Part shown: piece after piece, positions 5,325 through 25,452 of the stretch
Numbering within the stretch: position 1 is the stretch's first letter
Layout: every line of letters begins with the position of its first letter
Position numbers and translations under genes: made by a program
From: Bacillota bacterium
GTDB taxonomy: Bacteria; Bacillota; UBA4882; UBA8346
Length of the DNA: 32,000 bases
Assembly (NCBI GenBank): GCA_029974635.1
Contig: JARKQY010000001.1
Span: forward strand, 61,433-93,432
Direction of reading: 5' to 3'
The notes under the pieces: model-generated
What the model saw: only the letters and a program-made list of their open reading frames with translations
What the model was told of the DNA's origin: nothing
Databases searched by the model: none

Positions 5325-7028
5325 GTGTATTTTTCAAAGATATTAAAGCTCATAAACGGTATGGTATTGATTTCGCTGCTGTGTATTACAGGTTTCGTAC
5401 CGATAATTCATGGACAAACAGCTTTTTTCCCGGTAGCAAAGATAAGACCGGGATTAACTGGTTATGGGTATACAGTTTTTGAAGGAACCAAAGTTGAAAA
5501 ATTTAAGGTAAAGGTTTTGGCGGTCATTGGCAGCGGGTACCGGCAGGATAAATTCATACTGGTGAAACTCTCCGGGGACCGTTTGGAAAAAAACGGGGGA
5601 TTATCCGCCGGGATGAGCGGCAGCCCCGTATATATCCGGGGAAAGCTGGTCGGAGCCATCAGTTATGGTTTTGAAAATGGGGATCCGTTTCTGGCATTGG
5701 TTACTCCAATTGAAATAATGGCCCGTTTAATGGATGAGCAAGTTACGCAAAGGTTAATTCCTGCGGGATTGAAAACGGATTTTCATATGGAGCCGGTTCC
5801 GGTAAGAACTCCGGTAATTGTTTCCGGAATGGGACGCCGGGGTTTCGAATTGATTCAAAAGTCCTTACAAGAATACAATCTAGCGCCCGTATTCGTCCCA
5901 AGCTCTGGGATTCAAGGTGTTGACGGTAGAAACACTGCTTTACGCCCGGGAAGCGCCATCAGTGTTCAGATGGTTACCGGTGATTATCAGGTTTCAGCTT
6001 TAGGTACGGTTACCTTGATTGACAATCAGCAATTTTTAGCCTTCGGACATTCTTTTACCAATCAAGGTGCTGTAGATTATTTGGCTTTCACTGCTTTCAT
6101 CTTTCGAACCGTCAAAAACCAGGCAATGCCATTTAAATTTGGCGCGCCCGTTTCTTTCATCGGCAGTATTACCAACGATCGGCAAGCCGGCATACTTGGC
6201 CGGCTGGGTAAAACCCCGGATTTGATTCAGGTGAACGCCAATATTAAGGATAACGATACAAACCGCCGCCATGATCATCATTTTCAAGTCGTTCAGAATG
6301 AACAGGTGTATCGGGATTTGATCATTTCCGGGATAACCGATGCCATCGACAAAACCATTGACCGGGTGGGTGGCGGAACCGCAACCGTAACTTTTGAAAT
6401 TGTCGCAAAAGATGAAACGCAGTTAATCGTAAGGCAAAACCTGTTTTATGGTAAGGATATCGCCGTCAATTGTTTGAAAGATCTGAAAGCGGCGCTGGAT
6501 CTTATAGCATCCAACGAATATGCGCCGGTTCCGCTTAAATCAATTACCATTGATGCCATAATGTGCAACCAACAGGTTTCTGCCAGAATCGTCAAGTTAA
6601 ATAGCGAACTCACCAAGGCGAGACCCGGTGATACCATAACGGTCAGAACCACAATCCGGCCTTATCGCGGCGCAGAATTGACAGTACCGTTTACAATCAA
6701 GTTACCGGAAAACCTCGAACCGGGCAAGTTGACCCTTAGTGTCCAAAGCGGCTCGAAATATCTTCCGGAAGAAAACGAGGACGCCAAAAAAGATGAAACT
6801 AAGACCGGACATCAGAATTTGGGCTCAATAAGCGCCTTGCTTGCCAATTTCACTGATTCACCCAAAAACAATGAATTGATTTTTGAATATCGCACAGTAA
6901 ATGCCAAAAAAGCAGAAGCCGTCAATCCAGGCGGGGAGAATAAGCTTAAGCAAGACAAATTGAAGGCGGCCACGGATTATTTCTTGGTGGGAGAGGCTCA
7001 ATTGACCTTGGATATTGCCAATCAATAA
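5325..7028 (+). CDS. Secreted peptidase S55 (SpoIVB-like) domain protein with a long C-terminal extension
   Basis: The frame is open from 5250, but GTG 5325 has AGGAG 7 nt upstream. It yields a signal-peptide-like N-terminus (MYFSKILKLINGMVLISLLCITGFVPIIHGQ). KVEKFKVKVLAVIG...GGLSAGMSGSPVYIRGKLVGAISYGF matches the SpoIVB Ser-motif region. ALGTVTLIDNQQFLAFGHSF matches the SpoIVB GALGH His-motif region. Confidence 0.75.
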   Translation: MYFSKILKLINGMVLISLLCITGFVPIIHGQTAFFPVAKIRPGLTGYGYTVFEGTKVEKFKVKVLAVIGSGYRQDKFILVKLSGDRLEKNGGLSAGMSGSPVYIRGKLVGAISYGFENGDPFLALVTPIEIMARLMDEQVTQRLIPAGLKTDFHMEPVPVRTPVIVSGMGRRGFELIQKSLQEYNLAPVFVPSSGIQGVDGRNTALRPGSAISVQMVTGDYQVSALGTVTLIDNQQFLAFGHSFTNQGAVDYLAFTAFIFRTVKNQAMPFKFGAPVSFIGSITNDRQAGILGRLGKTPDLIQVNANIKDNDTNRRHDHHFQVVQNEQVYRDLIISGITDAIDKTIDRVGGGTATVTFEIVAKDETQLIVRQNLFYGKDIAVNCLKDLKAALDLIASNEYAPVPLKSITIDAIMCNQQVSARIVKLNSELTKARPGDTITVRTTIRPYRGAELTVPFTIKLPENLEPGKLTLSVQSGSKYLPEENEDAKKDETKTGHQNLGSISALLANFTDSPKNNELIFEYRTVNAKKAEAVNPGGENKLKQDKLKAATDYFLVGEAQLTLDIANQ

Positions 7029-7040
7029 CATGCGAAATGG

Positions 7041-10000
7041 ATGTTCATCATGCTGTTGACTAATCCGTTCCTCAGAAGATCCATCAAACGAAATATTTTG
7101 ATCGTGGTTGTGAGTGCCATATTTTGTATGGTGGTACTATTCTTTGTGCTGCCGTCCCTGCTGTTAAATGATAAGTTTTTGACGGACGGATTTCGAACCA
7201 TGTTACAGAAGGGATTAAAAGAAAGCGGACTTACGGTTGAGATTGGGAATATCCATTGGGAGTCCTGGAACGGTTTGGTTGGGACCCGGATGTTGTTTAG
7301 GGAACGTAATAGCAAGGAAATTATAATTCAAGCCGAACAGGTCCATTTGCGGTTTAATCCGTTCATCTTAATCACCAATTTCAAAAATCCGGAAGCCTGC
7401 CTGCAAAAGATGGTTTTTATGAAACCCCAGTTAGCCATTGAGCGGTACTCCGACAATACTTGGAATTTGCAACGCTATTTCAAGGGCGGGGGCCGCCGTT
7501 TGTTTTTGGCGGGTTTATTACAGTTAAAAGAAGGACAAGTCTCCTTCCGGGACTATGAGTACGGTAATTATATTCTAAACAAGATTAACGGCAAGGTGAA
7601 CTTCAACAAGTATCCGGCTGTAAGCTGGAGTTTAGCCGGAACCAGTCATTTGGGCAGCGAATTGAATTGGAGCAGCCGGGGGGAAATACGCATTGATCAG
7701 CAGGCGGGTTTCGTGAATCTCGCGGTTAAAAACGGTTTATTGGCAAGAGTAAAGCCGTTTATCCCCCCGGTTTTTGATTACCGGATCAGTTCCGGTTATA
7801 CCGATTTGCAATTGAATTTTGTATTAGCGCGCGGTTATTTCGGAGTTGCAAAAGTTAACGCGACGATCCGGGACGCTGTCGTTTCGATATCCCCGCTCCC
7901 GAAAATGATACGCATCAAATATCTGAAGGGAGAAGTATCACCTGATATGATCCGGGTTGGGAAAGGGGATCTTTTGTATGACCAAACTGCAATTGATCTT
8001 TCGGGAAAAATCGATTTGCGGAGTACGAAAATAGACGCCTCCATTGCCGCTGCCCGTATTAATCCGGAAGATTGGCTTCCTTTCTTGAAAGTACCCGCTA
8101 ACTTGAAAATATCGGGCCGGGCCGGTTTGCAGTTGCAAATTGACGGGGAGATTGACGCCCCCCGGGTTAACGGCCGGATTGATCTGGACAAAATCAGCGT
8201 GCCCATTCAAAATGAGCATCAAATCCAACAAGTTTCCGGACGGATCATGATCGTAAATAATAATTTGAAAATCCAGCGGCTGCGGGGAAGCTGGAATCAA
8301 TGCCCATTAGAAATTAGCGGCCAAATTACGGATATTTTAAATCCCAAATTGAACCTGAGTATCGCAGCGTATCATTTTCGATTACAGGATATCAATTTAT
8401 TCCGGAATTTCAATCTGGGGCTAGAAACGAATGATGAATCGGCTTTACATGCCAATATATCCGGAAGTATTCAATCCCCTGAAATTGCGGCGACGGTTAC
8501 TTTTAAGCAATTGATGTACCAGGAAGTACCGGTAAGCGATATTGAACTCCGGTTTGTTTGGAGTACTGCAAAAAATACGGTTCAAATTCGTAACTTGAGC
8601 GGTTATGTCTGGGAAGGAGAACTAGCCATAAAGGGATTGGTCAAATTCGAACCGTCGGGAGTGCGGTGGCGGGCTTCCGGAAAGGTTTCCAGTCTTGATC
8701 TGGGCAAAATTTCTTTGGGGCCTGATCTTCCCATTCAAGGCAAGGTCTCAACGGACGTTGTATTTCGTGGTAATTGGAAAAACGGACAGCCTTTTAAAAT
8801 AGGAAATGTACTTGGTACTTTCACCGGAACACGTCTAACTCTTAGTGATGCCATAGTGGATCAGGCAGAAGGAGTTTTTAACTGGAGTGACGATAATTTG
8901 ATTATCGATTCAATCCAGGCCCAAATCAAACAGGGCCGAATATTTGGTTCCTTGTCCATGGATAACCAGGGGCAGCTTGCAGTGAATCTGAATGCCGAGA
9001 ATATCCGGATGCGCGATTTATTGCCGGATGCCAAGAAATTTCCTTTGGACGGCACGTTTAAAGGTGGCTTCGTGTTTCAAGGGCCACTGAACCAGCTTTC
9101 CGGAAAAATAGACGGTTCCTTTACGGGGATGACCTTAAATTCGAAGCTCATCGGTGATATCACCGGCAGCTTAATATATGGAAATAATCAGATATCCATC
9201 TCGAATCTGTTGCTGACTAGTGATTTGGGAAATTTTTCTATGCAGGGCAATGTTAATCTGGCGGCTGAACCCAATATTGATATCAATATAATCAGTGCCA
9301 ACACCGATTTAAAGGGGTTAATCAAGTGGCTTCCGGTTGATCCGTCACTTACAATCGACGGTTATGGAGAAATCGACCTCAATATAAACGGCAGTATAGA
9401 AAATCCAGAATTTAGCGGCCGGATACATTTAATGGATCCGGCACTGGAGACTGTTAAAATGAAAGAGGGATTCATTGAGTTCCAGGGAAACCTTACGGAA
9501 ATAACACTGACCAGATGCCTGTTGCAAAATAACAATTCGACATTGGAATTTACGGGAAAGGTAAACCGTGACCGGATTGATTTGAACATTTCCGGTCAGG
9601 ACTTTGATTTAAGCGTGTTGGGCGCGGAAGCTCAAGGCCATCGTTTGCAGGGGTTGGTCAATTTTACGGGCCGATTAAGCGGCGCTGTTTCGAATCCAAA
9701 ATTAACCGCTACTATATCCGGTGGCGAATTAAGCTTTGGTTCGTTATCCTACCGGTCGCTACAAGCCAGAGTCAGTTGGAACTCCGGCGGACTAACCATC
9801 GATAGCGCCGAATTGAGACAAGGCGATAGTTCAGTATCATTTAACGGCCGGGTGATATTCTCTAAAACGGTGGAATGTCAATTGGAAGGCAGAGTAACCT
9901 CGCTTGAAATCAATAAACTCCGCCAGTTCGTGAAGATTCCCACCCAGCTAAAAATTGGCGGGACTTTATCGGGGACCGTCAATATCAATGGTCCCATAAA

Positions 10001-11750
10001 CAATCCGGCTCTTAAAATCACCGGAGATCTCAGCGGTACATTGAATGATACATCTTTGTTCGGGGACTTTGAACTGAATTATTCCAACAATAAAATTATC
10101 TTTGACAGGGTTGAGTTGTATCATGGGAATGGCGCCATTATTGGGCAAGGTTCCTGGCAAAATCAACATTCGCTAAATGCTCGGGTTCAGCTTATCAATT
10201 TTCCTTTGCAGACGGTGAACCAGTTTACTAACCCTTCCGTCCGGTTAAGCGGAGTTATAAACTCAAAGATCACGCTGGAATGGGATAGGGATAAGGTCGC
10301 TGGTGACTGTCATGCGGAAATAACAACTATCGGCCTCAACGGAAATACGTTTGGAAATATGCAATTAACTGGAATCTTCACCGAAGGTGGGTTGCATGTA
10401 AAAGACCTTTCACTGGCCGGCAAAGAGGGGACAATCAATGGTTCGGCTTATATTCCATGGTCTGCGACCATACCGGCGCAGTTAAAGCTGCCGGCCTTAA
10501 ACAATCAGACGTCGGATCAAATGGAAAGCAATTTTACTTTTAAAAACCTGCCGGTATCTCTGGTGAATAATTATATTCCCGGTTTTTCAGCTACTTACGG
10601 TTCGCTGGATGGGAATATACAGGTGAATGGCGAATTATCCATGCCATCCATTTCAGGCATGCTTGAGATAAATAATACTAGAGCCACCATCGATGAGGTG
10701 CCGCTTCCAATCGACAACTTTCAAGCAGTGGTGGAAATCAATAACAATCAGATTGAAATCAAAAAAGCCCGGGGATTATACGGAACCGGCAATTTCACCG
10801 TTACCGGAAAAGCGAGTTTCTATGAATTCAAAAATCTGGAGTTTGATATTAATTTGACCGGATCGCGAATTTATTATAAAAACTTATTTTTTGACGGCTT
10901 TGGCGACCTGAATCTCAAGTTGACCGGTACGCCGGATGATTCTTTAATTTCCGGTGATATATCGGTATCCAATGCCAAAATTGGCGTTCTTGGGATGGGC
11001 GCCGGGAAAAATTCCGATATTGCATGGCAGCCCAGATTTGATGTCAAAATAAAGGCTGAACATAATACCAGATGCCGGGTAATCGGGTTTGCCGATCTGA
11101 TCATCAAAGGAGCGGTTAATCTTAAAGGAACATTAATGGAACCTCTTTTAGAAGGTGAAATCAATTCCAATAGCGGTGTATTGACTTTTTATAACAATAC
11201 GTTTCGAATTAAAAAAGGAAAGGCTGTTTTTCGATACTCTCAGGGGTATAATCCCTATCTGGAGATAGAGTCGAGTATCAAACGGGCGCAGACGGAGATC
11301 AATCTAAATGTAAAAGGGTTGGCGCCGGATGGAATGAATATTAGTTTAACATCCCGGCCCTTTATGACTCAAGCCGATATTTTTGAGTTGTTGAATTGGA
11401 CGGATTTGGAAGCCGGACAACCTATTAATCCGCAAGACATTATCAACCAAAATCTTAGTATGGTTACCGATACAATCTTTGGAGATTTCTTATACGAATT
11501 ACGCCAGTCATTAAACATCAATTATCTATATTTGGAACCGGATCAGGCGCAGAATGATTTTCGAATTAATTTGGGTTCATATTTAACCCAACAACTATCT
11601 TACTCATATAGCCGTTCCATCTTTCCCGAAAATGAAAAAAGTTGGATATTTAGTTTGAGTTATTACTTCGATCCCGTCTGGTCGTTGGAATATAATTATT
11701 CGCCATTGGACGGAACAGTTTGGCGGCTGAGATATCAAATCCAATTATAA
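7041..11750 (+). CDS. tamB: TamB-like translocation and assembly module protein (AsmA-like / DUF490 family)
   Basis: 1569-aa ORF starting 12 nt after the S55 gene. It has a single N-terminal TM helix (ILIVVVSAIFCMVVLFFVLPSLLL), a very long beta-rich repetitive body (repeated xGxIxLxG motifs), and a C-terminal region (LTSRPFMTQADIFELLNW...WRLRYQIQL) resembling the DUF490 end of TamB. Confidence 0.85.
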   Translation: MFIMLLTNPFLRRSIKRNILIVVVSAIFCMVVLFFVLPSLLLNDKFLTDGFRTMLQKGLKESGLTVEIGNIHWESWNGLVGTRMLFRERNSKEIIIQAEQVHLRFNPFILITNFKNPEACLQKMVFMKPQLAIERYSDNTWNLQRYFKGGGRRLFLAGLLQLKEGQVSFRDYEYGNYILNKINGKVNFNKYPAVSWSLAGTSHLGSELNWSSRGEIRIDQQAGFVNLAVKNGLLARVKPFIPPVFDYRISSGYTDLQLNFVLARGYFGVAKVNATIRDAVVSISPLPKMIRIKYLKGEVSPDMIRVGKGDLLYDQTAIDLSGKIDLRSTKIDASIAAARINPEDWLPFLKVPANLKISGRAGLQLQIDGEIDAPRVNGRIDLDKISVPIQNEHQIQQVSGRIMIVNNNLKIQRLRGSWNQCPLEISGQITDILNPKLNLSIAAYHFRLQDINLFRNFNLGLETNDESALHANISGSIQSPEIAATVTFKQLMYQEVPVSDIELRFVWSTAKNTVQIRNLSGYVWEGELAIKGLVKFEPSGVRWRASGKVSSLDLGKISLGPDLPIQGKVSTDVVFRGNWKNGQPFKIGNVLGTFTGTRLTLSDAIVDQAEGVFNWSDDNLIIDSIQAQIKQGRIFGSLSMDNQGQLAVNLNAENIRMRDLLPDAKKFPLDGTFKGGFVFQGPLNQLSGKIDGSFTGMTLNSKLIGDITGSLIYGNNQISISNLLLTSDLGNFSMQGNVNLAAEPNIDINIISANTDLKGLIKWLPVDPSLTIDGYGEIDLNINGSIENPEFSGRIHLMDPALETVKMKEGFIEFQGNLTEITLTRCLLQNNNSTLEFTGKVNRDRIDLNISGQDFDLSVLGAEAQGHRLQGLVNFTGRLSGAVSNPKLTATISGGELSFGSLSYRSLQARVSWNSGGLTIDSAELRQGDSSVSFNGRVIFSKTVECQLEGRVTSLEINKLRQFVKIPTQLKIGGTLSGTVNINGPINNPALKITGDLSGTLNDTSLFGDFELNYSNNKIIFDRVELYHGNGAIIGQGSWQNQHSLNARVQLINFPLQTVNQFTNPSVRLSGVINSKITLEWDRDKVAGDCHAEITTIGLNGNTFGNMQLTGIFTEGGLHVKDLSLAGKEGTINGSAYIPWSATIPAQLKLPALNNQTSDQMESNFTFKNLPVSLVNNYIPGFSATYGSLDGNIQVNGELSMPSISGMLEINNTRATIDEVPLPIDNFQAVVEINNNQIEIKKARGLYGTGNFTVTGKASFYEFKNLEFDINLTGSRIYYKNLFFDGFGDLNLKLTGTPDDSLISGDISVSNAKIGVLGMGAGKNSDIAWQPRFDVKIKAEHNTRCRVIGFADLIIKGAVNLKGTLMEPLLEGEINSNSGVLTFYNNTFRIKKGKAVFRYSQGYNPYLEIESSIKRAQTEINLNVKGLAPDGMNISLTSRPFMTQADIFELLNWTDLEAGQPINPQDIINQNLSMVTDTIFGDFLYELRQSLNINYLYLEPDQAQNDFRINLGSYLTQQLSYSYSRSIFPENEKSWIFSLSYYFDPVWSLEYNYSPLDGTVWRLRYQIQL

Positions 11751-11913
11751 TTTGTGATATAATTATAGCGTAGTTTTAAGGATAAAAATATGTATATTTG
11801 GGAGAAATCAGCTTGATTTCCTGAAGTCTTTTCATTTCTACAGCAGGATATTAAAGAGGTAACGAGAAACTATGTAATTAGTTTCCCTAAGATTTCCCCG
11901 GGAAGGTGACCGG

Positions 11914-12558
11914 TTGATTCATCAGTATTTTTCTGAATTAGCGAAGGTCCGTATACTTTCTGCGGCAGAAGAATCATCGTTATGGAAGCAGTATAAAATT
12001 GAAAATTCACGTGAGGCGCGCTATCGTATTATCGAGGCCTACCAACCTTTGGTGTATAAAATTGCCTCGCGAATCTCCATTAACGAAGAATTGTTTTTTG
12101 ATTTAATTCAAGAGGGCACAATTGGCTTAATTGAAGCCGTCGAGAACTTCGATCTTAAATACGCCGTTAAATTCAGCACTTATGCCCAACACCGCATCCG
12201 GGGAAGAATGATTGATTTTTTACAAAAATTGCAGCGGTATAAGGAACCCTTGGAAATGGCGCTGCAGGAAGAGGAATTCACCCATTTTTTAAGTCGCATC
12301 GCGGATCAACAAGTTAATATCGAAGATGAAGTTACTTTAAAAATCATCAGCGCTCAGGTCAATCAGGCGATTTCACGTTTAAACCTCAAGGAGCAAAAGG
12401 TGATTCGGGATTTATACCTTTTGGATAAAGAGCCGGCCGCTTCCGCCGAGGAGTTGAATATTAGTCTCTCCTATTTGTATAAAATCCAAAAAAAGGCTTT
12501 GCAACGGTTGCGGGGAATGTTATCAAAACTGCGCACGGAAATAAAAACAAACGGATAA
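11914..12558 (+). CDS. Sigma-70 family RNA polymerase sigma factor, group 3 (FliA/WhiG-like)
   Basis: TTG start with GGAAGGTG upstream. Region 2 reads DLIQEGTIGLIEAVENFDLKYAVKFSTYAQHRIRGRMIDFL. The region 4 helix-turn-helix reads LNLKEQKVIRDLYLLDKEPAASAEELNISLSYLYKIQKKALQRLR. It is short (214 aa). Confidence 0.85.
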   Translation: MIHQYFSELAKVRILSAAEESSLWKQYKIENSREARYRIIEAYQPLVYKIASRISINEELFFDLIQEGTIGLIEAVENFDLKYAVKFSTYAQHRIRGRMIDFLQKLQRYKEPLEMALQEEEFTHFLSRIADQQVNIEDEVTLKIISAQVNQAISRLNLKEQKVIRDLYLLDKEPAASAEELNISLSYLYKIQKKALQRLRGMLSKLRTEIKTNG

Positions 12559-12711
12559 CCGGCATAAAGGGGAGAAAAAACGTGGATAGCGGCTATCATC
12601 ACACTAGATACCCTAAAATCGCAAAAAATAAGTTGACGAAAAAATCGTTTGTTTATGGATATTATCTATAGCTTAAATTATTGCAGGTGTTTTTGGAGGG
12701 GTGTGAATAAT

Positions 12712-13371
12712 ATGGAAAAAGTTGATAACCAAAAAGTGCTTGATCACATTGACGGGGCCAAGGATTGGCTGGATAAAGCCAAGGCTGAATACGACAGCGC
12801 CAATCCGGTGGGAGGCGAGTTGATTTTAAATCTTGCCGGAGCGGAAATTAAATATGCCCGGGAACTAAGTTGTTCCCGTTACGTTGTAACTGAAAAAAGA
12901 ATCCCAAAGAGAGCCGGTTCCGGTGATTTTCGAAAAACGGCCTTACCGATAGCCGCATCTGTCATTCTACTTTTGGGAGTTGTTTTTTGGTTGCAAACCG
13001 GTGGATGGAATACATCCAAAAACCTTTCTGCTTTACAGAAGAGCGCCGCACCGGTTTCCAATGAACCAAAAACGGTTGTCAAAAACAATAGCGGGAATAC
13101 CACGGAAAAGGTGTCCGCTGTCAATGAGCAACCGGATAACTTGCAATCGGAAAATGAAACTATTTTGGAGAAATCTGTATCCGAGAGTTGGAAGACCTCA
13201 AGCGAACGGGAACGAACCGTAAGTAACAGCGGGAATACAGCAATTGCAAATCAAAACAGGGTTGCAGATAAAACTGCAACTCAGCCGAAGCTCCAACCCG
13301 TGTCCCAGCTTTCGATTGATGAAGAAGCCTTAACGAAAGAAGCATCTCACAGTTTGCGAAATGGTAAATAA
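12712..13371 (+). CDS. Bitopic membrane protein: about 95-aa cytoplasmic N-domain, one TM helix, Ser/Asn/Thr-rich low-complexity exterior
   Basis: The frame is open from 12649, but ATG 12712 follows GGAGGGGTG. The TM segment is ALPIAASVILLLGVVFWL. No recognisable family. It ends 13 nt before bamA. Confidence 0.6.
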   Translation: MEKVDNQKVLDHIDGAKDWLDKAKAEYDSANPVGGELILNLAGAEIKYARELSCSRYVVTEKRIPKRAGSGDFRKTALPIAASVILLLGVVFWLQTGGWNTSKNLSALQKSAAPVSNEPKTVVKNNSGNTTEKVSAVNEQPDNLQSENETILEKSVSESWKTSSERERTVSNSGNTAIANQNRVADKTATQPKLQPVSQLSIDEEALTKEASHSLRNGK

Positions 13372-17096: not shown

Positions 17097-17125
17097 ATTT
17101 GTATTTATTTAAGGAGAAATGCCGA

Positions 17126-17701
17126 ATGAATTTAAATATTCTTCGCGGGCTGCGGCGCTTTCTAATTCTTTCTTTTATATTAGTTCTAGCCGGGGTAAGT
17201 TTGAATGGAACTGTTTTCGGTAAATCCTTAAAGGTTGGATTTATCGATATGGAGCTTCTGCGGACGGAACTCCCTTATTACCAAGAATTAGAAAATATTT
17301 TCAAAGCAAAGGATGCCGAGCTTGAAAGTTTTCGGGGCAGCCTATACAAAGAATACTTGCAGTTTTATCAGCAAAGAGAGCAAAATTATTTAAAGGAGAA
17401 AACGGGGCGATCCTCGGAAGAACAAGAGCGGCTTTCCCAACGTTTTCAGACTGAAGTCAAAGCCAAAATGGCTCAATTGAACGAACAGTTGGAAAAAAGG
17501 CAAGGGGAGTTAGAGAAGTTTAAGGAAGAGCAGAATCAGATGTTGATTGATAAGGTAAATGAACTCATTAACACTGTTTCCGCCAAAGCAAAGGTTGCCA
17601 CAGTCATTGAAAAAAAATATGTATTTTACGGCGGTACCGATATTACCAAGAAAGTTATCGACAAAGTTAAAAAGGATAGCCAAAAGAAAACTAAACCGTG
17701 A
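17126..17701 (+). CDS. Skp/OmpH-family periplasmic chaperone, paralog 2
   Basis: ATG 17126 follows AAGGAG; the track frame opens at 17099. Signal peptide, VGFIDMELLRTELPYYQ, coiled-coil body, and C-terminal VIEKKYVFYGGTDITKKVIDKV parallel to paralog 1. Confidence 0.8.
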   Translation: MNLNILRGLRRFLILSFILVLAGVSLNGTVFGKSLKVGFIDMELLRTELPYYQELENIFKAKDAELESFRGSLYKEYLQFYQQREQNYLKEKTGRSSEEQERLSQRFQTEVKAKMAQLNEQLEKRQGELEKFKEEQNQMLIDKVNELINTVSAKAKVATVIEKKYVFYGGTDITKKVIDKVKKDSQKKTKP

Positions 17702-17717: not shown

Positions 17718-17751
17718 AATTATCATAGATAATTAATTATCATAGATAATT
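17718..17751 (+). promoter_or_regulatory. Perfect tandem duplication of a 17-bp unit, each containing the palindrome ATTATC-N3-GATAAT (candidate operator pair)
   Basis: aattatcatagataatt occurs at 17718-17734 and again at 17735-17751, in the 124-bp gap upstream of the 17826 gene. Confidence 0.6.
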
Positions 17752-17785
17752 TAAAATTCAAGCTTCGCTTTAATACGGGTGGCTG

Positions 17786-17807
17786 TTTCTACTAGAAAAA
17801 TTTCTAG
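17786..17807 (+). promoter_or_regulatory. Overlapping palindromes TTTCTA-C-TAGAAA and CTAGAAA-AA-TTTCTAG
   Basis: Read directly: tttctactagaaaaatttctag, 19 nt upstream of ATG 17826. It could be an operator or a small hairpin. Confidence 0.45.
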
Positions 17808-17825
17808 ATAGCAAAAGTGTAATTC

Positions 17826-18767
17826 ATGAAAAAACCGGTTCAAACACGGGTATACAGTTATCCGAAAAAGGTTGGTCTTTTTCGCAAACTTTTAATGGTA
17901 ATTTCAAATTGCAGTCCGGCCGTAAAGTGGGTTGGCAGCGTATTTGGATTATTGGGATTGATTTTTGCCTTGATTATTGGTGGAATCATACCAATAAAAC
18001 CCTCCAACGCCCATTTACCGGATTATGCGGCTATTGTCAGTCATCGTGCCAATTGGACTCAATATCAAAAAATAACTGAGGGTCTTGATACTCTAGACAA
18101 GGACTGGTTCCGTAATCATCGAAACTGGAAACCGCCAAATGATCAATTTGAACAGCAAATTGCCAGGGAGTCGTTGAGTTCCCAAACTTCCCAAATAAAG
18201 TCAATGTTTGTCGGGGAAGAAACTTTTCGCCGTATTGGGCTTGAGGAAGCGCTGAAATTATTCAATACCCAGCTTCATCAGGATATTGAGCAGCGAATTA
18301 GCATTAAATCGGGTGTTTTAAGAAAAAAGCTGGACGAGGACCTTGGTTTCAAGGGGCGGGAACATGAAAAGGCCATGGCTGATTATAATCAAGAACTGGT
18401 GAATGACTACCAGGTAACCTTGACCAATTTGCAATTGCAATTATTATTAACCGATTTATTCAATAATACCAAGGATCCGGTTGAGGAGAAGAAAAGGATT
18501 CAAAATCAAATTAATCATATTCATCAAGAAATGCATGAAAAGATTTCCATCCGGCAGCAACAATTAAACGCCGAATTGGAAGTCTATAAGAAGCAGCGGC
18601 AAAAGGAGACGGAGTCGGAGTTGGAAATGCTGCGCGGCCAATGGGAGGCTTACGCCGTGGAGGAGTTACGCAAATATGGTCAGACATTGGAGGAAGGTTT
18701 TCAGAATTGGCTGGAACAACGCCAACGGGAAACTCAGTCAGCTATTGATCAACGCATGAATTTTTGA
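17826..18767 (+). CDS. Membrane-anchored coiled-coil protein of unknown function (Gln/Glu-rich periplasmic domain)
   Basis: 313-aa ORF with one TM helix (WVGSVFGLLGLIFALIIGGII). The remainder is heptad-like and Q/E/K-rich (QLQLLLTDLF...QQQLNAELEVYKKQRQKETESELEML). No obvious SD, so the start is uncertain. Confidence 0.55.
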   Translation: MKKPVQTRVYSYPKKVGLFRKLLMVISNCSPAVKWVGSVFGLLGLIFALIIGGIIPIKPSNAHLPDYAAIVSHRANWTQYQKITEGLDTLDKDWFRNHRNWKPPNDQFEQQIARESLSSQTSQIKSMFVGEETFRRIGLEEALKLFNTQLHQDIEQRISIKSGVLRKKLDEDLGFKGREHEKAMADYNQELVNDYQVTLTNLQLQLLLTDLFNNTKDPVEEKKRIQNQINHIHQEMHEKISIRQQQLNAELEVYKKQRQKETESELEMLRGQWEAYAVEELRKYGQTLEEGFQNWLEQRQRETQSAIDQRMNF

Positions 18768-18802
18768 ATAATAATGCTGAATGAATCGAACGAATTACTA
18801 AA

Positions 18803-19240
18803 ATGGAGGAGATTTTATTGTTGAATGAGAAATTAAATAAATATTTAGTACCGGGAGCTATTCTGCTAGGATTCATCATATTAACAGCCGGATTGATTTG
18901 GGGATTGAGCGCATTTTCGTTTCAAATCGGCAGCGTGGATATTAACCGCTTGAAGTCCGACAATAAATATGTGAAACAATTAAATTCCGAAATACAAATC
19001 AAAAGCCAACAACTGCAGGAACAATTTAAGAACGCCAAAACCGAGTCCGACAAAAACCAGATTCAAATGGAGTATCAGCAATACACGGCTGAGATGGACC
19101 GCCAATTTACCCAAAAAGTACAAGAGGTTATCAAGGGAGTCGCCAAAAAGAAGGGCATTAAAGCGGTGGCCAATTCTCAATCAATCATGTACAGCTCCGT
19201 TGACTTAACGGAGGATGTAATCAAAGTGTTGGATAAATAA
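18803..19240 (+). CDS. Short Skp/OmpH-like protein, paralog 3 (uncleaved-anchor type)
   Basis: N-terminal hydrophobic segment, IGSVDINRLKSDNKYVKQL, a coiled-coil body, and C-terminal SIMYSSVDLTEDVIKVLDK, which is OmpH-like. The start may be TTG 18818 or 18821, both of which follow GGAGGAG. Confidence 0.65.
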   Translation: MEEILLLNEKLNKYLVPGAILLGFIILTAGLIWGLSAFSFQIGSVDINRLKSDNKYVKQLNSEIQIKSQQLQEQFKNAKTESDKNQIQMEYQQYTAEMDRQFTQKVQEVIKGVAKKKGIKAVANSQSIMYSSVDLTEDVIKVLDK

Positions 19241-19266
19241 GGACCATAAAAGGAGCTCTGATCAAA

Positions 19267-20295
19267 ATGCCATCTTTGCTGGAGTTAGCTCGCTTAGTAA
19301 ACGGTGAATTAGTTGGGGATGGTAATATTCAAATATACGGGGCTTCTGGAATTGATGATGCGGAAGCCGGGGAGATTACTTTTGCTGTTTCCAACCGGAT
19401 TTTAGAAGCGACAGGCCGCTCTAAAGCTACTGCCGTGCTAGTTCAACCAGATGCTCCCGAACTTGATAAAGCGGTTATTAAGGTTCGTAATCCCCGGCTG
19501 GCTTTCGCCCAGATATTGACTTTATTTGCTCCTAAAAAGGATTTTAAGCCGGGTATTCATCCATCAGCCCAAATTGGCCGGGAGTTTGAGGGGCAGGATA
19601 TTTCAGTTGGTCCGTTTGTTTATATTGGTGATCAAGTACGTATCGGAAAAGGCAGCATAATTTACCCGGGGGCAGTCATCGACGACCGGGTTGTTATTGG
19701 TGAAAACTCGATAATTCATGCCAATGTGGTCATCCGGGAAGACACTGTTATCGGAGATCGGGTTCAAATCCATGCTGGAACTGTGATCGGATCGGATGGA
19801 TTCGGTTATGAGACTATAGCCGGCGGCAAGCACTTTAAAGTTCCCCAAGTTGGAAAAGTCGTCATTGAAGACGATGTGGAGATTGGCTCCAATGTTTCGG
19901 TAGACCGGGCAACAACCGGAGTGACCTTGATTAAAAGGGGAACTAAGATTGATAATTTGGTTCAAATTGCCCATAATTGTCAAGTTGGCAATGATAATAT
20001 TTTATGTGGACAGGCGGCCATTGCGGGCAGCACCAAAACCGGCGACCGGGTTACTCTGGCGGGCAAAGCCGGTTTGGTCGGACATATTAAAATAGGTGAT
20101 GATTCGGTGGTTGCCGCCTGTGCGATGGTAATCAGCAGCTTGCCGCCTAATTCATTTGTTTCGGGTAGTCCTGCCCGGCCTCATGCGGAAGATATGCGGA
20201 TTCAGGCGGCCATGAATCGCCTGCCCGATCTGCTAAAAGAGATTAAAGAACTTCAAAAAAGAGTAGCGGAACTGGAAAAACGAATGCCTGATTAA
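19267..20295 (+). CDS. lpxD: UDP-3-O-acylglucosamine N-acyltransferase
   Basis: 342 aa with an LpxD-type N-terminal domain (LLELARLVNGELVGDGNIQIYG). Left-handed beta-helix hexapeptide repeats, DGFGYE...FKVPQVGKVVIEDDVEIGSNVSVDRAT...TKIDNLVQIAHNCQVG, and a C-terminal helix. Confidence 0.9.
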   Translation: MPSLLELARLVNGELVGDGNIQIYGASGIDDAEAGEITFAVSNRILEATGRSKATAVLVQPDAPELDKAVIKVRNPRLAFAQILTLFAPKKDFKPGIHPSAQIGREFEGQDISVGPFVYIGDQVRIGKGSIIYPGAVIDDRVVIGENSIIHANVVIREDTVIGDRVQIHAGTVIGSDGFGYETIAGGKHFKVPQVGKVVIEDDVEIGSNVSVDRATTGVTLIKRGTKIDNLVQIAHNCQVGNDNILCGQAAIAGSTKTGDRVTLAGKAGLVGHIKIGDDSVVAACAMVISSLPPNSFVSGSPARPHAEDMRIQAAMNRLPDLLKEIKELQKRVAELEKRMPD

Positions 20296-20362
20296 AAACC
20301 AGGGAGAAATCTCCTTGTCTAGAGTCCGCTTCATTAGCAGGATTATATTATAAACTGGGCGA

Positions 20363-20398
20363 AATAATTCCTGATATAATTCAGGAATTATTTTTTTT
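20363..20398 (+). terminator. Rho-independent terminator after lpxD
   Basis: 12-bp perfect stem aataattcctga / tcaggaattatt with a 6-nt loop, running into a T tract extending to 20398. Confidence 0.8.
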
Positions 20399-20488
20399 GT
20401 TGGATGAACCCGGTTTTTATTTTTCCGCTAACCCCGAAATTGGCCAGGATACTGCGAGTAACACTTTAGTTATAGACAGAGGTTAACC

Positions 20489-21568
20489 GTGCGAATTATT
20501 CACCGTTATATTTGGAAAGAGTTTTTACAACAATTTTTATTATGTTTTTTGGGTTTTACCGCTTTGGGTATCGGTAAAATCTTTTTTGAAAACAATGATT
20601 TGTTTATTGGATACAGGATGCCCATGCGTTTGATCTGGACGCTGTTGTTGGATAAGATACCTTCATTATGGATGGATGTTATTCCAGCGGCTGCTTTATT
20701 CGGAATCATTTTAGCCCTCGGCAGGTTGCTGCGTGAAAAAGAGTTTGATGTCATCCGGGTTAGCGGTGTGAGTCTAGTCAAAACCACTTTGCCTATTTTT
20801 ATCGGTGTCGCTATCATCTGTTTTGGTGCATATTGGTGGAATGATTTAGTGGTGTCTTCGGCAAATCACCGTTTTGAAATGGAGATTAAGCGGCTTTCCA
20901 ACCGGGAGAACTTACCACTATTGAAAGAAAATGTTGTTTTCAGGGGGCCGCAAAATCGTTATATTTATTTAAATAAAGTAGAAAACCGGTTAAAAAAGAT
21001 TAGCGGAATTTTAGTGATGGAGCTTGGAGTTTCCGGGAAATGGCCCCGGCTGATAACCGCTGAATATGGAAAAGTACAAAACGGGGTTTGGATCCTTTAT
21101 AATGGCATAATTCATGAAATGGATGAAAATGGTGTGATAAAAACCGAATTAAAATTTCCCAGAATGGAATTATTGATGACCATTGATTATACGGTAATGA
21201 TGGGGGATAAAAGCCCTTATGAGATGAGAGCGGGCGAATTGCTTCAAAAAATAAAAATAAATAAAGAGTATGGGTCTTTTAACCCGGTTTATTCCGTCTA
21301 TTACCATCAAAAATTTGCCGACCCGGTGATATCCTTGGTACTGGTCTTTTTGGCGATTCCCTTGACAATGTTGACCGGACGCAATTCAAGCTGGCTGGGA
21401 CTCGTCTGGTGCTTTTTAATCATAATGGGTTATTATGTGCTTCAGGTTGTGGGACGAACCATGGGTTGTAATGGAGTTATATCCCCCTTCGCTGCAGCCT
21501 GGGTTCCCCATATTCTAATTTTTTCCGTTGGCCTTTTTCTATTAGTGGCGACCGAACAACGGAGGTAA
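20489..21568 (+). CDS. LPS export ABC transporter permease, LptF/LptG (YjgP/YjgQ) family
   Basis: GTG start with AGAGG upstream. The N-terminus MRIIHRYIWKEFLQQFLLCFLGF is typical of the family. Three TM helices, a ~150-aa periplasmic insert, then three TM helices. It is the only such gene in the window. Confidence 0.85.
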   Translation: MRIIHRYIWKEFLQQFLLCFLGFTALGIGKIFFENNDLFIGYRMPMRLIWTLLLDKIPSLWMDVIPAAALFGIILALGRLLREKEFDVIRVSGVSLVKTTLPIFIGVAIICFGAYWWNDLVVSSANHRFEMEIKRLSNRENLPLLKENVVFRGPQNRYIYLNKVENRLKKISGILVMELGVSGKWPRLITAEYGKVQNGVWILYNGIIHEMDENGVIKTELKFPRMELLMTIDYTVMMGDKSPYEMRAGELLQKIKINKEYGSFNPVYSVYYHQKFADPVISLVLVFLAIPLTMLTGRNSSWLGLVWCFLIIMGYYVLQVVGRTMGCNGVISPFAAAWVPHILIFSVGLFLLVATEQRR

Positions 21569-21570
21569 GG

Positions 21571-23799
21571 ATGGAGAAACGTTTTACTGCGGGTATCATC
21601 ACAGTCCTGTTGATATTGCTGTTCTCTTCATCTGTTGCGGCGGATTCGGAAGCGGCAAAGATAACGGCCGACCAAATAACTTATGATTATCAGCATAAAA
21701 GGATGGAGGCTTCCGGAAATGTAAAGATCATTTACAAGGATATAAGCGTTGCAAGTGAAAAAGCCTTTATTGATCAGGAACAAAACATAATTCTAGCAAC
21801 TGAAAACGTTCATATCATTAAAAAAGATTCCCGATATACCGGTAACCGTTTTCTATATTATATGAATACTGAAGAGGGTTTATTGGCTCCGGTGGACTCC
21901 GAAATTCGTGATAAGCAAATCAACGGGCCAATCAAGTTCTCCTCCCGTGAATCCTACTTCATCGGCGAAGTTATTAAATCAAGAGGAGCTTCTTTTACCG
22001 GATGTGATCGCGATCATCCCCATTATCATTTTGTCGCCAAGCGGGTGGAGTATTATCCGGAAGACCGGGTGGTAATGCATAATGTATGGTATTGGGAGCA
22101 CAAAGTTCCCCTGATGTATCTGCCGGTTTTTTATATTTCTCTAAAAGAAGAACGGGATAATTTTGAGTTTTCCATGGGGCAAAATCAAATCGAAGGATTC
22201 TTTGTAAAAATAGGATATAACTATATTTTTAGTGATAATAATTACGGCAAAGTATCCACCCGGTTGACGGAAAAGGGGGGCAACGAGTTAGGTGTCAAGC
22301 ATTATTCAAAATTCAATGAACGCAGTAAGTTTTATCAAGATTATAGTTTGGTGGAGAACAGTAAATTAGGTAATCCTCATCTGGATTATAAGATTGGTTT
22401 CGGCTATGAAAATGAGGTCAATTCCAAATTTAGATTCTCCACCGCATTTGAGGACTGGAAACGTTCCTATATTTATCTTTCAGGAATTCGTTATGAAAAG
22501 CCGCACCAGGAACGGGCTTTTAATTTTCTGGCAACCGGTCAGTCTCCGTATCCGGGATTAAGCGTTAGGTATAGCGAAAATACCGGAACAGGCTATTATT
22601 TATATGATTTCAGCAGTAACTGGAGTTTAAGTCCCGATCCTTCGCTGGGTTTTAGTTTCAACGGCCGTTATGTCCTGGAAAATCTATTAAATATTCCTTG
22701 GAATACGCCTGTCGATATCAACAACATCCCGCAGCAAAGCGCCAATAACTTTAATTATTCCGGAACGTTAAGAAAAGATTGGGGATGGTCCAATCTTTCC
22801 ATTACTCATACCGATACGCAGGTATACAATGGAAATATCAGCAGCAATAATTTAAAACCGGATGCCGTTTATACGATTCCCAAGTGGCATTGGCCACTGC
22901 TGGGAGATGTCAAAGTAAGTGGGGGTTATTTATATTTAGAAAAATCCAATAATGGAGTAATTATCGACCATGGTGAGCGTTGGGCTCTTGACATACAAAA
23001 GATCCCGCTTAGTCTATGGCAGACATCACAATCATCCTTAAATTGGGAAAGCAAATTTGGCTACCGCGACTTTTTTAATACCAATACTGCGAATTATATC
23101 TATCATCAAAAAGAAACGGAGCTTTATGCCTTAACAACCAATCTGAACCTTTCCCACCAATTCACCAAGGTGTTTTCCACCAATTTAAAATTGGGATATA
23201 CTGAAGCGGAAGGTACGCCAAACTACTTTTTCGGCAGGACCGACGATAATATTCTGGACGGAGCATTCATTAGTAATGAATGGAGATGGCAGAGTTCGGC
23301 TTTTTATACTTTGGTAAGCACCGGCTATAATATTACCCGGGAGATTGCCAGCCCGCTCACGGTATCCTCCCGTTGGACGCCGGCCGCAGGGAGCGAAGTG
23401 AATTTTAACACTACTTATGACTGGTTAAAGGGATTAGGCTTAACAACCATCCAAGCCAATTATAATCCCAATCAAAATTGGCGGCTGGCATTGAGTGCGG
23501 GGTATGATTTTCAACTGGATAGCTGGAGTCAAAAACAATTTGAGGCGTTGATCCGGCAAAAGGTTTTTTCCAAGCTTGAAGCGGAAGTAATTGCCAAGTT
23601 TGATATGTTTCGGAACGCTTTTGTTGAGGCGAAAACCGGGTTGGTTTATGATTGGCATTGCCGTAAATTCAAGCTGAATTACGATTGGCTCCGGAGTCAG
23701 TATACGCTCACCCTTATCTTTAATGCCATTCCTGGTTCGCCACTGGAGTTTTCATCCGAGCACGGTTTCGAGGGGATGTTCAATGCGATTCAGTTTTAA
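21571..23799 (+). CDS. lptD: LPS-assembly outer membrane protein LptD (OstA N-domain plus large beta-barrel)
   Basis: Starts 2 nt after the permease stop and has a signal peptide. OstA-like ITADQITYDYQHKRMEASGNVKIIYKDISVASEKAFIDQEQN. FTGCDRDHPHYHFVAKRVEYYPEDRVVMHNVWYWEHKVPLMYLPVFY. Tyr/Asn-rich barrel region, C-terminal ...MFNAIQF. Confidence 0.85.
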   Translation: MEKRFTAGIITVLLILLFSSSVAADSEAAKITADQITYDYQHKRMEASGNVKIIYKDISVASEKAFIDQEQNIILATENVHIIKKDSRYTGNRFLYYMNTEEGLLAPVDSEIRDKQINGPIKFSSRESYFIGEVIKSRGASFTGCDRDHPHYHFVAKRVEYYPEDRVVMHNVWYWEHKVPLMYLPVFYISLKEERDNFEFSMGQNQIEGFFVKIGYNYIFSDNNYGKVSTRLTEKGGNELGVKHYSKFNERSKFYQDYSLVENSKLGNPHLDYKIGFGYENEVNSKFRFSTAFEDWKRSYIYLSGIRYEKPHQERAFNFLATGQSPYPGLSVRYSENTGTGYYLYDFSSNWSLSPDPSLGFSFNGRYVLENLLNIPWNTPVDINNIPQQSANNFNYSGTLRKDWGWSNLSITHTDTQVYNGNISSNNLKPDAVYTIPKWHWPLLGDVKVSGGYLYLEKSNNGVIIDHGERWALDIQKIPLSLWQTSQSSLNWESKFGYRDFFNTNTANYIYHQKETELYALTTNLNLSHQFTKVFSTNLKLGYTEAEGTPNYFFGRTDDNILDGAFISNEWRWQSSAFYTLVSTGYNITREIASPLTVSSRWTPAAGSEVNFNTTYDWLKGLGLTTIQANYNPNQNWRLALSAGYDFQLDSWSQKQFEALIRQKVFSKLEAEVIAKFDMFRNAFVEAKTGLVYDWHCRKFKLNYDWLRSQYTLTLIFNAIPGSPLEFSSEHGFEGMFNAIQF

Positions 23800-24436
23800 G
23801 ATGCTAACGGTACTTTTTATCATGAGTTTCGTTTTGCTGGGGTATTTTGGCGGATGGTGGGATACCCTTTGGGCTGAACTATGGACGCGTCCGGGAGCCT
23901 CAATTGTTGCACCGAAGCCCGATCCGCCCGCCATTGTAATTTCCCAGCCGCAATTAACCGGTTGGGATGATTTGAAGAAAACATGGCAAATTGAAGCTGA
24001 GCGGATATGGCAATCTTCTAAGGGGAATACGTTTCATTTTACGAAAATTTTGAACGGCGTAGTATTTTCCGCAAAGGATGAACGAATCGAGTTTAGCGCC
24101 GGGTGGGGTCGTTTGGAGAAGTCCAGTTCCGATTTATATATTGGCGGTGAGCTGGAAGCCATAATCGGCGAGGGCCGATTCAAAACTGCGGAAGCTTTTA
24201 TGAATTATAAACGGGAAGAACTGTTATGCCCGAACGATGTTATTTATATTGAAAATGAGATGGTCATTCAAGCCCAAAAAATGGAAATTCAGTATTCTAA
24301 AGATGAGATTCTTTTGGAAGGAGATGTACAACTTTTCGAGAAAAGAGATCTTATGACAGCCGACGGTCTCCTATATAATACTAAGGAAAAAAAATACTAT
24401 ATGATTCATCCTAAAGAGATTACGTTGTATCCATGA
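23783..24436 (+). CDS. lptC: LptC-like protein (N-terminal TM anchor plus OstA-like beta-jellyroll)
   Basis: The frame is open from 23723, but ATG 23783 follows GAGGGG and gives MRFSFKMLTVLFIMSFVLLGYF. It overlaps the lptD end by 17 nt. Its size, topology and position upstream of lptA fit LptC. Sequence similarity to LptC is weak by eye. Confidence 0.65.
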   Translation: MRFSFKMLTVLFIMSFVLLGYFGGWWDTLWAELWTRPGASIVAPKPDPPAIVISQPQLTGWDDLKKTWQIEAERIWQSSKGNTFHFTKILNGVVFSAKDERIEFSAGWGRLEKSSSDLYIGGELEAIIGEGRFKTAEAFMNYKREELLCPNDVIYIENEMVIQAQKMEIQYSKDEILLEGDVQLFEKRDLMTADGLLYNTKEKKYYMIHPKEITLYP

Positions 24437-25452
24437 AAAACTTTGGCTGTATTATATTCGTCGGCTTTTTATTCATCGCCGGATGGGTTTTTGCGGAGAG
24501 TGAACCCGTAAAGATAACCGCCCTGAAGGTATCCGGTGATACAGCAAAAAAAATAACATATATTGAAGGCAATGTTCGGATTGTTCAAGGCCAAACATTG
24601 ATTACCACTGAATATGTAACTATTAACCTGGATCAAAAAATTGCCCGGCTAGACCAAGGGGTTCTTATGCAAGACCCAGATATCCATATTAAATCGACCC
24701 GTTTGGAGTATAACCTCAAAGAAAAGACCGGAACCTTTCGGAAGCAGGTTGTTTTAAAACGGCTGGAAACAGAGAAAAATGATAAGGATCCTTTTGAGTT
24801 GTCCGCCGATGAGCTTTATTTCGAAACGGATTCCAGAAATTTTAAAGCACGGCGAAATTGCTATATCAAACATCAAGAGTTTGAAGGAAAAGCCGCCTAT
24901 ATCGAATATGATGATGCCGGACAAAAGCTTAGCTTTACCGGCAATGTGGTCATCGAACAAGATTCCACTATCATCCGTTCTAAAATGGTGGTTATTGACT
25001 TGCGTAAAAAAGAGCTGCAATTAGACACCGCAACCGACTTGGCCAGCAGGGAGATCAAAGTTAATGCGGACGCACTCACCTATGACTATCAAAAAAAAGC
25101 AGGGAGATTCAAACAAAAAGTTGTTTTGGAGCGTTCCCAAGTTAAGGATTCCAAAGGCAAGGTCAGCAAAGAGCCTTTTAAGTTAACAGCGGATGAACTA
25201 TATTTCGAAACGGACACCAATAACTTTATGGCGGAAGGCGGCCGGATTGACCATCAGGAGTTTGCCGGAACAGCAGCCAAGATTGGTTATAACGATGAAA
25301 AACAGCAGTTGAGTTTTGCCGGCGGCGCTGTGCTAAACCGGCCTCAAGGCGACGAGTTAAGAGGCGACTTGATTGAGATTAATTTGCAGGAGCAAAGCTT
25401 TATGGTTCATAAAAATGGAAATATTAGACTACAGGTTCAGGAGGATGAATAA
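24433..25452 (+). CDS. lptA: LptA/OstA-family periplasmic protein, double length with an internal duplication
   Basis: ATGA overlap with the lptC stop, and a signal peptide. OstA-like KITALKVSGDTAKKITYIEGNVRIVQGQTLITTEYVTINL. Two modules: KDPFELSADELYFETDSRNF...HQEFEGKAAYIEYDDAGQKLSFTGNV and KEPFKLTADELYFETDTNNF...HQEFAGTAAKIGYNDEKQQLSFAGGA. Confidence 0.8.
   Translation: MKNFGCIIFVGFLFIAGWVFAESEPVKITALKVSGDTAKKITYIEGNVRIVQGQTLITTEYVTINLDQKIARLDQGVLMQDPDIHIKSTRLEYNLKEKTGTFRKQVVLKRLETEKNDKDPFELSADELYFETDSRNFKARRNCYIKHQEFEGKAAYIEYDDAGQKLSFTGNVVIEQDSTIIRSKMVVIDLRKKELQLDTATDLASREIKVNADALTYDYQKKAGRFKQKVVLERSQVKDSKGKVSKEPFKLTADELYFETDTNNFMAEGGRIDHQEFAGTAAKIGYNDEKQQLSFAGGAVLNRPQGDELRGDLIEINLQEQSFMVHKNGNIRLQVQEDE

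Follow-up and report, generated by a model that had tools for sequence, protein, structure and literature searches.

The 32,000-nucleotide window analyzed here, which belongs to contig 16 of a 4.29-Mb, 88% complete Bacillota assembly, carries on its plus strand (5325–25452) a run of genes that is probably the conserved outer membrane (OM) biogenesis cluster of the diderm Firmicutes, encountered here in a class of Gram-negative spore-formers. It follows from the established functions of the families concerned that this cluster makes and supplies the machines inserting β-barrel proteins (BamA, SonA, TamB, Skp) and lipopolysaccharide (LPS; Lpt) into the OM. The cluster itself is textbook for diderm Firmicutes, and the known arrangement is now extended to the Hydrogenispora/Capillibacterium-like class. 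The point deserving attention is a pair of adjacent genes within it, encoding a FliA-like sigma factor and the bitopic membrane protein SonB, which is conserved across diderm Firmicute lineages and lost together with SonA in some of them.

Gene identities were taken from the open reading frame (ORF) listing combined with Pfam and NCBIfam scans of the window proteins. These bear out the single-strand OM/LPS run proposed in a preliminary description of this DNA and support the genes it named, LptD weakly. All features given below lie on the plus strand. TamB (AsmA-like, 1569 residues; 7041–11750; PF04357, E 3.2e-33), BamA with its POTRA domains and Omp85 barrel (13385–15151; PF01103, E 1.7e-27; PF07244, E 8.2e-22; TIGR03303, E 8e-55), and three Skp/OmpH proteins (16500–17096, 17099–17701, and a short third copy at 18803–19240; PF03938, E 1e-16, 3.6e-13, and 2.2e-9, respectively) are accompanied by LpxD (19267–20295; PF04613, E 6e-15, plus hexapeptide repeats) and the Lpt proteins. 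The latter comprise a single LptF/G permease (20489–21568; PF03739, E 7.6e-71) whose LptF and LptG scores are about equal, an LptD-like protein (21571–23799), LptC (23723–24436; PF06835, E 2.3e-8), and LptA with two OstA-like repeats (24433–25452; TIGR03002, E 1.4e-25, above cut-off). The LptD-like protein shows weak PF03968 and PF06835 matches at residues 23–80, in Pfam a sub-threshold N-terminal OstA-like match only, and a PDB sequence search returned no match. The name is used because of size, position, and conserved synteny, in addition to that sub-threshold match.

Antunes et al. 2016 (PMC5007114) described a large conserved locus of Negativicutes and Halanaerobiales in which TamB and a single BamA are joined by up to three Skp genes and by genes for making and transporting LPS. 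The cluster in the window matches it in the succession TamB–BamA, up to three Skp, then lpxD and lpt genes on one strand, in having a single LptF/G, and in residing in a Firmicute with sporulation genes; the diderm-Firmicute identity suggested earlier from the adjacency of tamB, bamA, and skp, with lpxD and lpt genes, is thus upheld. It departs from the Antunes cluster in that the host is of another class, that an S55-like gene directly abuts tamB, and that OmpM, Mla, TolC, flagellar-ring, and additional lpx/kds genes were not found within the 20 kb; among the scanned window ORFs of at least 80 residues there was no match to an S-layer homology domain or porin (OmpM). In the genome, lpxC and lptB are found on another contig (C48). 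The LPS set of the window is therefore partial (lpxD, lptF/G, lptD-like, lptC, and lptA only), which counts against the cluster assignment.

Relatives were located with a 7-sequence BamA alignment, and the reference collection for the class comprises 58 species, all of which encode BamA (58/58); the families compared are labeled f1–f6. Dozens of independent genomes and metagenome contigs share the gene order of the cluster, and the arrangement is therefore more than chance. TamB is syntenic in all loci examined. The full gene order is present in f1, and in f4 and f5 up to the contig ends; f6 lacks SonA, and the corresponding regions of f2 and f3 lack the sigma factor, SonB, and SonA. In the Halanaerobiales clusters the order reads S55-like–TamB–BamA–Skp–LpxD–Lpt.

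The named relatives recovered with the BamA profile are 'Bacillota bacterium' metagenome-assembled genomes, UBA8346, and Capillibacterium sp.; Capillibacterium thermochitinicola has been described as a Gram-negative spore-former (PMC8375423). The host is a member of this Hydrogenispora/Capillibacterium-like class of Gram-negative spore-formers. It is a Firmicute encoding two copies of Spo0A together with SpoIVA, SpoIVB, SigG, and SigK, and not a non-sporulating classical Gram-negative bacterium. SigG and SigK exceed their NCBIfam equivalog cut-offs, and a SigF-like protein passes only at the level of the SigB/F/G subfamily. RpoD, a SigH-like protein of low score, and several sigma factors of extracytoplasmic function (ECF) size are also present.

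The cluster sigma factor (11914–12558; 214 residues, regions 2 and 4; PF04542, E 6.5e-19) has a FliA-like region 2.1 ('YQPLVYKIA'), and among solved structures it is closest to SigA region 2 and FliA. It reaches the cut-off of none of the named NCBIfam sigma models, and only the generic sigma-70 superfamily model TIGR02937 passes; scores against the SigE, SigK, SigF, and SigG models are 55–78 bits versus cut-offs of 250–457, and the FliA/WhiG model TIGR02479 gives 65.5 bits versus 189.6. Orthologs are 38–80% identical and occur in 27/30 genomes of f1, 3/3 of f4, 1/1 of f5, and 1/1 of f6, compared with 0/20 of f2 and 0/2 of f3. For the same families in the same order, SonA is found in 27/30, 3/3, 1/1, 0/1, 0/20, and 0/2 genomes, SpoIVA in 27/30, 3/3, 1/1, 1/1, 20/20, and 2/2 (55/58 overall, with every family represented), and FlhA in 28/30, 0/3, 0/1, 1/1, 20/20, and 0/2. 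As these distributions differ, the sigma factor follows neither sporulation genes nor flagella, and the distribution of sigma factor and SonB is independent of both gene sets. Synteny read region by region bears this pattern out. Sigma factor, SonB, and mostly SonA are kept or lost together. In the f6 locus (L116, G036:C7:4500-24400), sigma factor and SonB are retained and no SonA lies between bamA and skp, so that the sigma factor is linked more tightly to SonB than to SonA.

Searching metagenomes with ten aligned sigma orthologs returned at least 564 relatives, and gene neighborhoods were read from the best 80. TamB lies directly upstream of the sigma gene in 65/68 loci with upstream sequence, and BamA downstream in 44/48 loci with enough downstream sequence; the sigma factor, described earlier as dedicated and alternative, is indeed bound to the cluster. 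SonA follows downstream in 33/43 loci. Gut and rumen samples are the source of many of these loci, which look like Negativicutes, with SonA proteins 36–45% identical to the Selenomonadaceae or Acetonema longum protein. The order TamB–sigma–SonB–BamA–SonA–Skp is therefore old and widespread, and the sigma factor has been a fixed part of the cluster since ancient times. Four loci (L132, L133, L140, and L141) contain TamB–sigma–SonB and no recognizable BamA in about 6.5–8 kb downstream; these may represent more distant lineages or a rearranged cluster.

The protein encoded directly after BamA (15164–16459, 431 residues; gap of 12 nt to bamA and of 40 nt to skp) is a SonA homolog. Beskrovnaya et al. 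2026 named SonB and SonA in the sonB-bamA-sonA-skp1 operon of A. longum (PMC13018214), and the gene order in the window is the same. The AlphaFold2 (AF2) model (mean predicted local distance difference test score, pLDDT, of 87.3) comprises three β-α-α-β-β POTRA units and a 10-stranded β-barrel, as in A. longum SonA (about 426 residues; three POTRA domains and a 10-stranded barrel), and Foldseek places TamA and BamA at the top. A. longum F7NM22 (SonA) is matched at E 5.4e-42 by a profile built from 32 members of the family, and the identity of this match was confirmed by accession. A metagenome scan with a Selenomonadaceae SonA gave no match, and A. longum SonA was not among the results of a protein search with a mixed SonA alignment. 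A sigma gene, of which the A. longum paper makes no mention, is located directly upstream of sonB, both here and in the Negativicutes-like loci. The word 'sigma' is absent from Antunes et al. 2016 (PMC5007114) and Beskrovnaya et al. 2026 (PMC13018214), and the sigma–SonB pair was not found in the searchable literature. Judging from accession numbering only, a sigma gene would lie between A. longum tamB and sonB (would-be accession F7NM25).

The gene between the sigma factor and BamA (12712–13371), which ends 13 nt before bamA, encodes a SonB-like protein, by its equivalent position a probable homolog of the recently named SonB (A. longum F7NM24). Its sequence homology extends to same-position proteins in Negativicutes-like loci (27% identity, E 3e-5, and a shared motif). 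In 35 diverse loci, the gene directly after the sigma factor was read; four calls were not interpretable, and all 31 others (31/35) are SonB-type proteins. These begin with a conserved motif (xAKxWLxxAxxxY...GELNLxLAQAEvxxA), followed by a basic stretch, one membrane helix at about residues 60–95, a variable Pro/Ser/Ala-rich tail, and a short conserved C-terminal motif. The most conserved part is the N-terminal segment before the membrane helix, which is most likely cytoplasmic because basic residues precede the helix. No signal peptide or lipobox Cys was found in the SonB-like protein, where about 75 polar residues precede the only hydrophobic helix (about residues 76–94). A single membrane helix is in common with A. 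longum SonB. Unlike SonB as described for that species, a putative OM lipoprotein, the protein here lacks a lipobox, and it is conserved in an N-terminal domain that probably lies in the cytoplasm. The C-terminal motif, (D/E)xxxLxxxAxxxLR, stands after a long low-complexity tail in the window (13300–13371) and in L054, L110, L144, L150, and L164, and may be a docking peptide for an OM partner. The preliminary description had listed the proteins at 12712, 15164, and 17826 as lacking a recognizable family, and no Pfam or NCBIfam model matches any of them; a lenient Pfam scan of seven SonB-like proteins likewise gave no match.

Similar promoter-like elements precede two of the transcribed regions. 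One (GCAGGATTTCTACAGTTGGTAAGCGAAT, 5201–5228) was found by a genome-wide scan upstream of the S55-like gene, where most relatives (L045–L050, L059) have AGGATTT-N14-CGAAT; the other (GCAGGATATTAAAGAGGTAACGAGAAA, 11843–11869), in two conserved blocks, lies upstream of the sigma gene, where AGGAta-N12/13-CGAGAA(T/A) is common to 11 family relatives. The Bacillus SigH consensus is AGGAWWW, 11–12 nt, RNNGAAT, and both motifs fit this pattern. The form GCAGGAWWW-N13-15-GAAT occurs 43 times in the host genome versus 3 times for a reversed control. Enrichment is just as strong in f2 and f3 genomes, which lack the cluster sigma factor, and the cluster sigma factor is therefore not the reader of this motif. 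The motif lies directly before both spo0A copies and the spoIIAA-spoIIAB-sigF operon, and also before many housekeeping genes, for example obg and mraZ. The two full-length Spo0A paralogs (frames of 269 and 274 residues; C38:89353-89664 and C5:224227-224535; loci L001 and L002) thus each have a SigH-type promoter-like motif upstream. Neither the gap ahead of the sigma gene nor that ahead of sonB gave a candidate in a scan for sigma-A-type promoters, and the loose pattern AGGA-N-CGAKAA also matches three intragenic sites in the window. Taken as promoter sequence, these elements suggest with about even probability that the S55-like–tamB unit and the sigma gene are read from SigH-type promoters. 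Upstream of sonB there is a different pair of boxes, GACG-N19-GATATTAT at 12635–12665 (GACA-N19-GATATTAT as the form conserved in the family), kept in family relatives with its two blocks in a fixed 23-nt register. A GAT(A/T)(T/A)TA(T/A) box occurs 10–70 nt upstream of sonB in 10/32 diverse loci versus 2.5% in shuffles.

The first gene of the cluster encodes an S55-like (SpoIVB-related) serine-protease-like protein (5325–7028, alternative start 5250; Pfam S55, E 2.5e-12), which is a paralog of SpoIVB and not its ortholog. Following an N-terminal membrane anchor, the S55 profile is matched at residues 74–143 only (profile positions 126–196). The AF2 model (pLDDT 83) has SpoIVB (9lnf) and DegS as best folds; these and MucD align locally only, over about 115–125 columns. 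In common with Bacillus subtilis SpoIVB, the protein has the Ser-bearing half of the protease fold, a GxSGSP motif, and conserved Ser, Asp, and His residues; GMSGSP, Asp220, and FGH242 are invariant in 33 homologs. In contrast to SpoIVB, it scores far below the equivalog cut-off (TIGR02860, 39.6 bits versus 305.25), gives no PDZ match in a Pfam scan, has its invariant Ser98 before Asp220 and His242, and carries about 330 extra C-terminal residues of β-rich domains. The host encodes a separate, true SpoIVB, which adjoins spo0A on contig 38, outside the cluster. The S55-like gene is present in 39/41 relatives, lies upstream of tamB in Halanaerobiales and in every class family whose contig reaches that far, and keeps its position in class members without the cluster sigma factor. 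Poppleton et al. 2017 detected Vpar_0521, which has a SpoIVB domain at its N-terminus and is conserved in diderm Firmicutes, in the OM fraction of the non-sporulating Veillonella parvula, its gene lying five genes before tamB (PMC5491611). V. parvula lacks the sigma–SonB module. Four loci (L174, L177, L197, and L198) contain two tandem S55-like genes upstream of tamB, and in three of these SonB is Ala/Arg/Gly-rich.

The adjacency of the sigma gene to a gene for a protein with a small N-terminal, most likely cytoplasmic domain, one membrane helix, and an extracytoplasmic tail points to a sigma/anti-sigma pair controlling the bamA unit, a reading to which we assign slightly less than an even chance. 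In such a pair, the conserved cytoplasmic two-helix domain of SonB would hold the sigma factor, and OM assembly would be monitored through the long periplasmic tail with its conserved C-terminal motif. Once freed, the sigma factor would transcribe sonB-bamA-sonA-skp using the conserved promoter-like box ahead of sonB. The closest known parallel is RpoE (sigma-E)/RseA with DegS and RseP, which handles envelope stress in Escherichia coli and whose sigma-E regulon includes bamA, skp, lpxD, and lpt genes. In both systems a sigma gene precedes one for a bitopic membrane protein whose small N-terminal domain is cytoplasmic (as predicted here), and in both the sigma factor is linked to bamA, skp, lpxD, and lpt genes. 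A trypsin-fold serine-protease-like gene is part of the cluster, as in the RpoE/DegS system, and DegS is among the best folds for its product. However, the cluster sigma factor is not of the ECF type, having a region-1.2-like N-terminus along with its FliA-like region 2.1, SonB has no sequence similarity to RseA, and, unlike in RpoE/RseA/RseP, the window contains no site-2 protease gene. In contrast to the DegS arrangement, the S55-like gene is kept in genomes without the cluster sigma factor.

Several points weigh against a sigma/anti-sigma pair with SigH-type input. In the lenient Pfam scan SonB resembled no known anti-sigma family, and its describers call it a putative OM lipoprotein (PMC13018214). 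The SigH-type motif before the S55-like gene was not found in L051, L054, and Capillibacterium L056; the SigH assignment consists of likeness to the consensus plus three marker promoters, and the SigH-like protein of the host scores far below its NCBIfam cut-off. No regulon was found for the sonB box in the host genome (17 matches versus 6 for the control, mostly an unrelated repeat family), and the box could be an ordinary housekeeping −10 element.

Sigma factor and SonB might instead be neighbors and not partners, SonB being a structural accessory of BamA/SonA and the sigma factor regulating something else or merely being co-transcribed with tamB. The published proposal that SonB is an OM-associated BamA partner, co-expressed with BamA (PMC13018214), speaks for this, along with the lack of similarity to anti-sigma families just mentioned, the start of the sigma gene 20–60 nt from the end of tamB in many loci, and the conserved C-terminal periplasmic motif of SonB, which could dock on BamA, SonA, or TamB. 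Yet SonB is most conserved in the segment before the helix, on the likely cytoplasmic side, and has neither signal peptide nor lipobox; moreover, sigma factor and SonB are never apart in the loci read and are lost together, and f6 keeps the pair without SonA. A mere neighborhood of the two genes is accordingly judged unlikely. The sigma factor could also be taken for the flagellar sigma-28 (FliA), placed in an OM cluster since flagellar ring genes sit there. Its region 2.1 and best named models (WhiG and FliA) fit this idea, and no other FliA-like sigma factor was seen in the 88% complete genome; FlhA, too, was not found in that assembly, whereas both same-genus genomes have it. The host flagellar locus thus appears to be missing from the assembly and was probably left unassembled, a true FliA with it. 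The shortfall against the FliA/WhiG cut-off, the presence of FlhA in f2 (20/20) without the sigma factor, and its absence from f4 (0/3) and f5 (0/1) with it make a flagellar identity hardly credible, and the sigma factor was rejected as FliA on the FlhA versus sigma distribution.

The preliminary description saw in the S55 protease and the sigma factor sporulation-type regulators coupling endospore formation to de novo OM assembly, a link that we now regard as very unlikely. It would suit a host from a diderm spore-former lineage (PMC8375423), the half-domain that the S55-like protein has in common with SpoIVB, the SigH-type motif shared by the S55-like–tamB unit and the sigma gene with spo0A and spoIIAA-sigF, and the up-regulation of BamA, SonA, SonB, and TamB at A. 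longum germination (PMC13018214). The canonical SpoIVB and the sporulation sigma factors, however, are encoded elsewhere in the genome, and the S55-like gene is kept in Halanaerobiales and in sigma-less genomes, with a like protein reported from the non-sporulating V. parvula (PMC5491611); a link through the protease is therefore not supported. Nor is one through the sigma factor, which is absent from f2 (0/20) and f3 (0/2) while SpoIVA is retained in 20/20 and 2/2, and whose orthologs are plentiful in gut and rumen metagenome loci resembling Negativicutes. When A. longum sporulates, differential expression is not seen for the core OM-assembly genes (BamA/OMP pathway, TamB, Mla), whereas transcripts for making and transporting LPS are enriched; the presence of SonA and SonB does not track sporulation ability (PMC13018214). 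The SigH-type motif, moreover, also fronts obg and mraZ. Only the motifs ahead of the S55-like–tamB unit and of the sigma gene hint at a connection with sporulation. The cluster is no device for sporulation and would, at the very most, take input from the transition-state sigma factor.

It is tempting to speculate how the sigma/anti-sigma pair and the SigH-type motifs may combine. In a three-step cascade, read from genes and motifs, SigH would turn on the cluster sigma factor and the S55-like–tamB unit. SonB, as an inner-membrane anti-sigma factor, would then hold the sigma factor, with its roughly 100-residue tail reaching the BamA/SonA machine. When OM assembly is needed, the sigma factor would be released, possibly after cleavage by the S55-like protease, and drive sonB-bamA-sonA-skp. 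That such a cascade ties OM rebuilding to the growth–sporulation–germination cycle in diderm spore-formers is doubtful. What this analysis adds is a comparison across the class with SpoIVA and FlhA, the evidence for SigH-type promoters, the box ahead of sonB, and the conserved C-terminal motif of SonB. If the switch were real, it would be a Terrabacteria counterpart of the sigma-E envelope response and would offer a handle on the control of BamA synthesis, germination included. The SigH-type promoters make a link to the transition-state regulon directly testable.

Within the cluster, intergenic gaps are mostly 2–40 nt, in agreement with the earlier figure of mostly 0–40 nt. The sigma gene, sonB, the gene at 17826, and lptF/G are preceded by larger gaps of 163, 153, 124, and 193 nt, respectively. 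The gap ahead of lptF/G contains a terminator-like hairpin (20361–20394, between lpxD and lptF/G; 14-bp stem, then a T run). Because of the four gaps above 100 nt and the hairpin, the cluster comprises several transcription units and not one operon, namely [S55-like–TamB], [sigma], [SonB–BamA–SonA–Skp–Skp], [coiled-coil–Skp–LpxD], and [LptF/G–LptD-like–LptC–LptA]. The membrane-anchored coiled-coil protein (17826–18767), which has no Pfam/NCBIfam match, is weakly conserved at the same position in family relatives and Capillibacterium; it was considered as a fourth Skp and rejected, as hhalign against Skp gives 19% probability only. The longest lptC frame overlaps the 3′ end of the lptD-like gene by 77 nt (23723–23799), and the true lptC start is probably further downstream than 23723.

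The genes following lptA (25687–31693), encoding an RNase-H-like exonuclease, an HD hydrolase, MtaB, HIT, and S21, keep their order in other class families (L116, L119, and L121), and the whole region is therefore an old syntenic block. On the other side of the cluster, the neighboring locus at 1416–5128 had been described as a CotS/GT4 spore-coat-like locus, which is a weak call. CotS-like matches do exist for two proteins, at 73 and 100 bits versus a cut-off of 172.7, and a GHMP kinase encoded there is most like the heptose kinase HddA (heptose-7-phosphate kinase, 325 bits), so these neighbors look at least as much like glycan genes. A CotS-like locus beside the OM cluster was seen only in the same-genus relative L045. 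A dispersed repeat, GACGGGATTAACGGGATTTAnnGGATTATAT, is found in the host genome, for example at C16:99170, C23:123746, C23:89415, C47:164124, and C56:213129.

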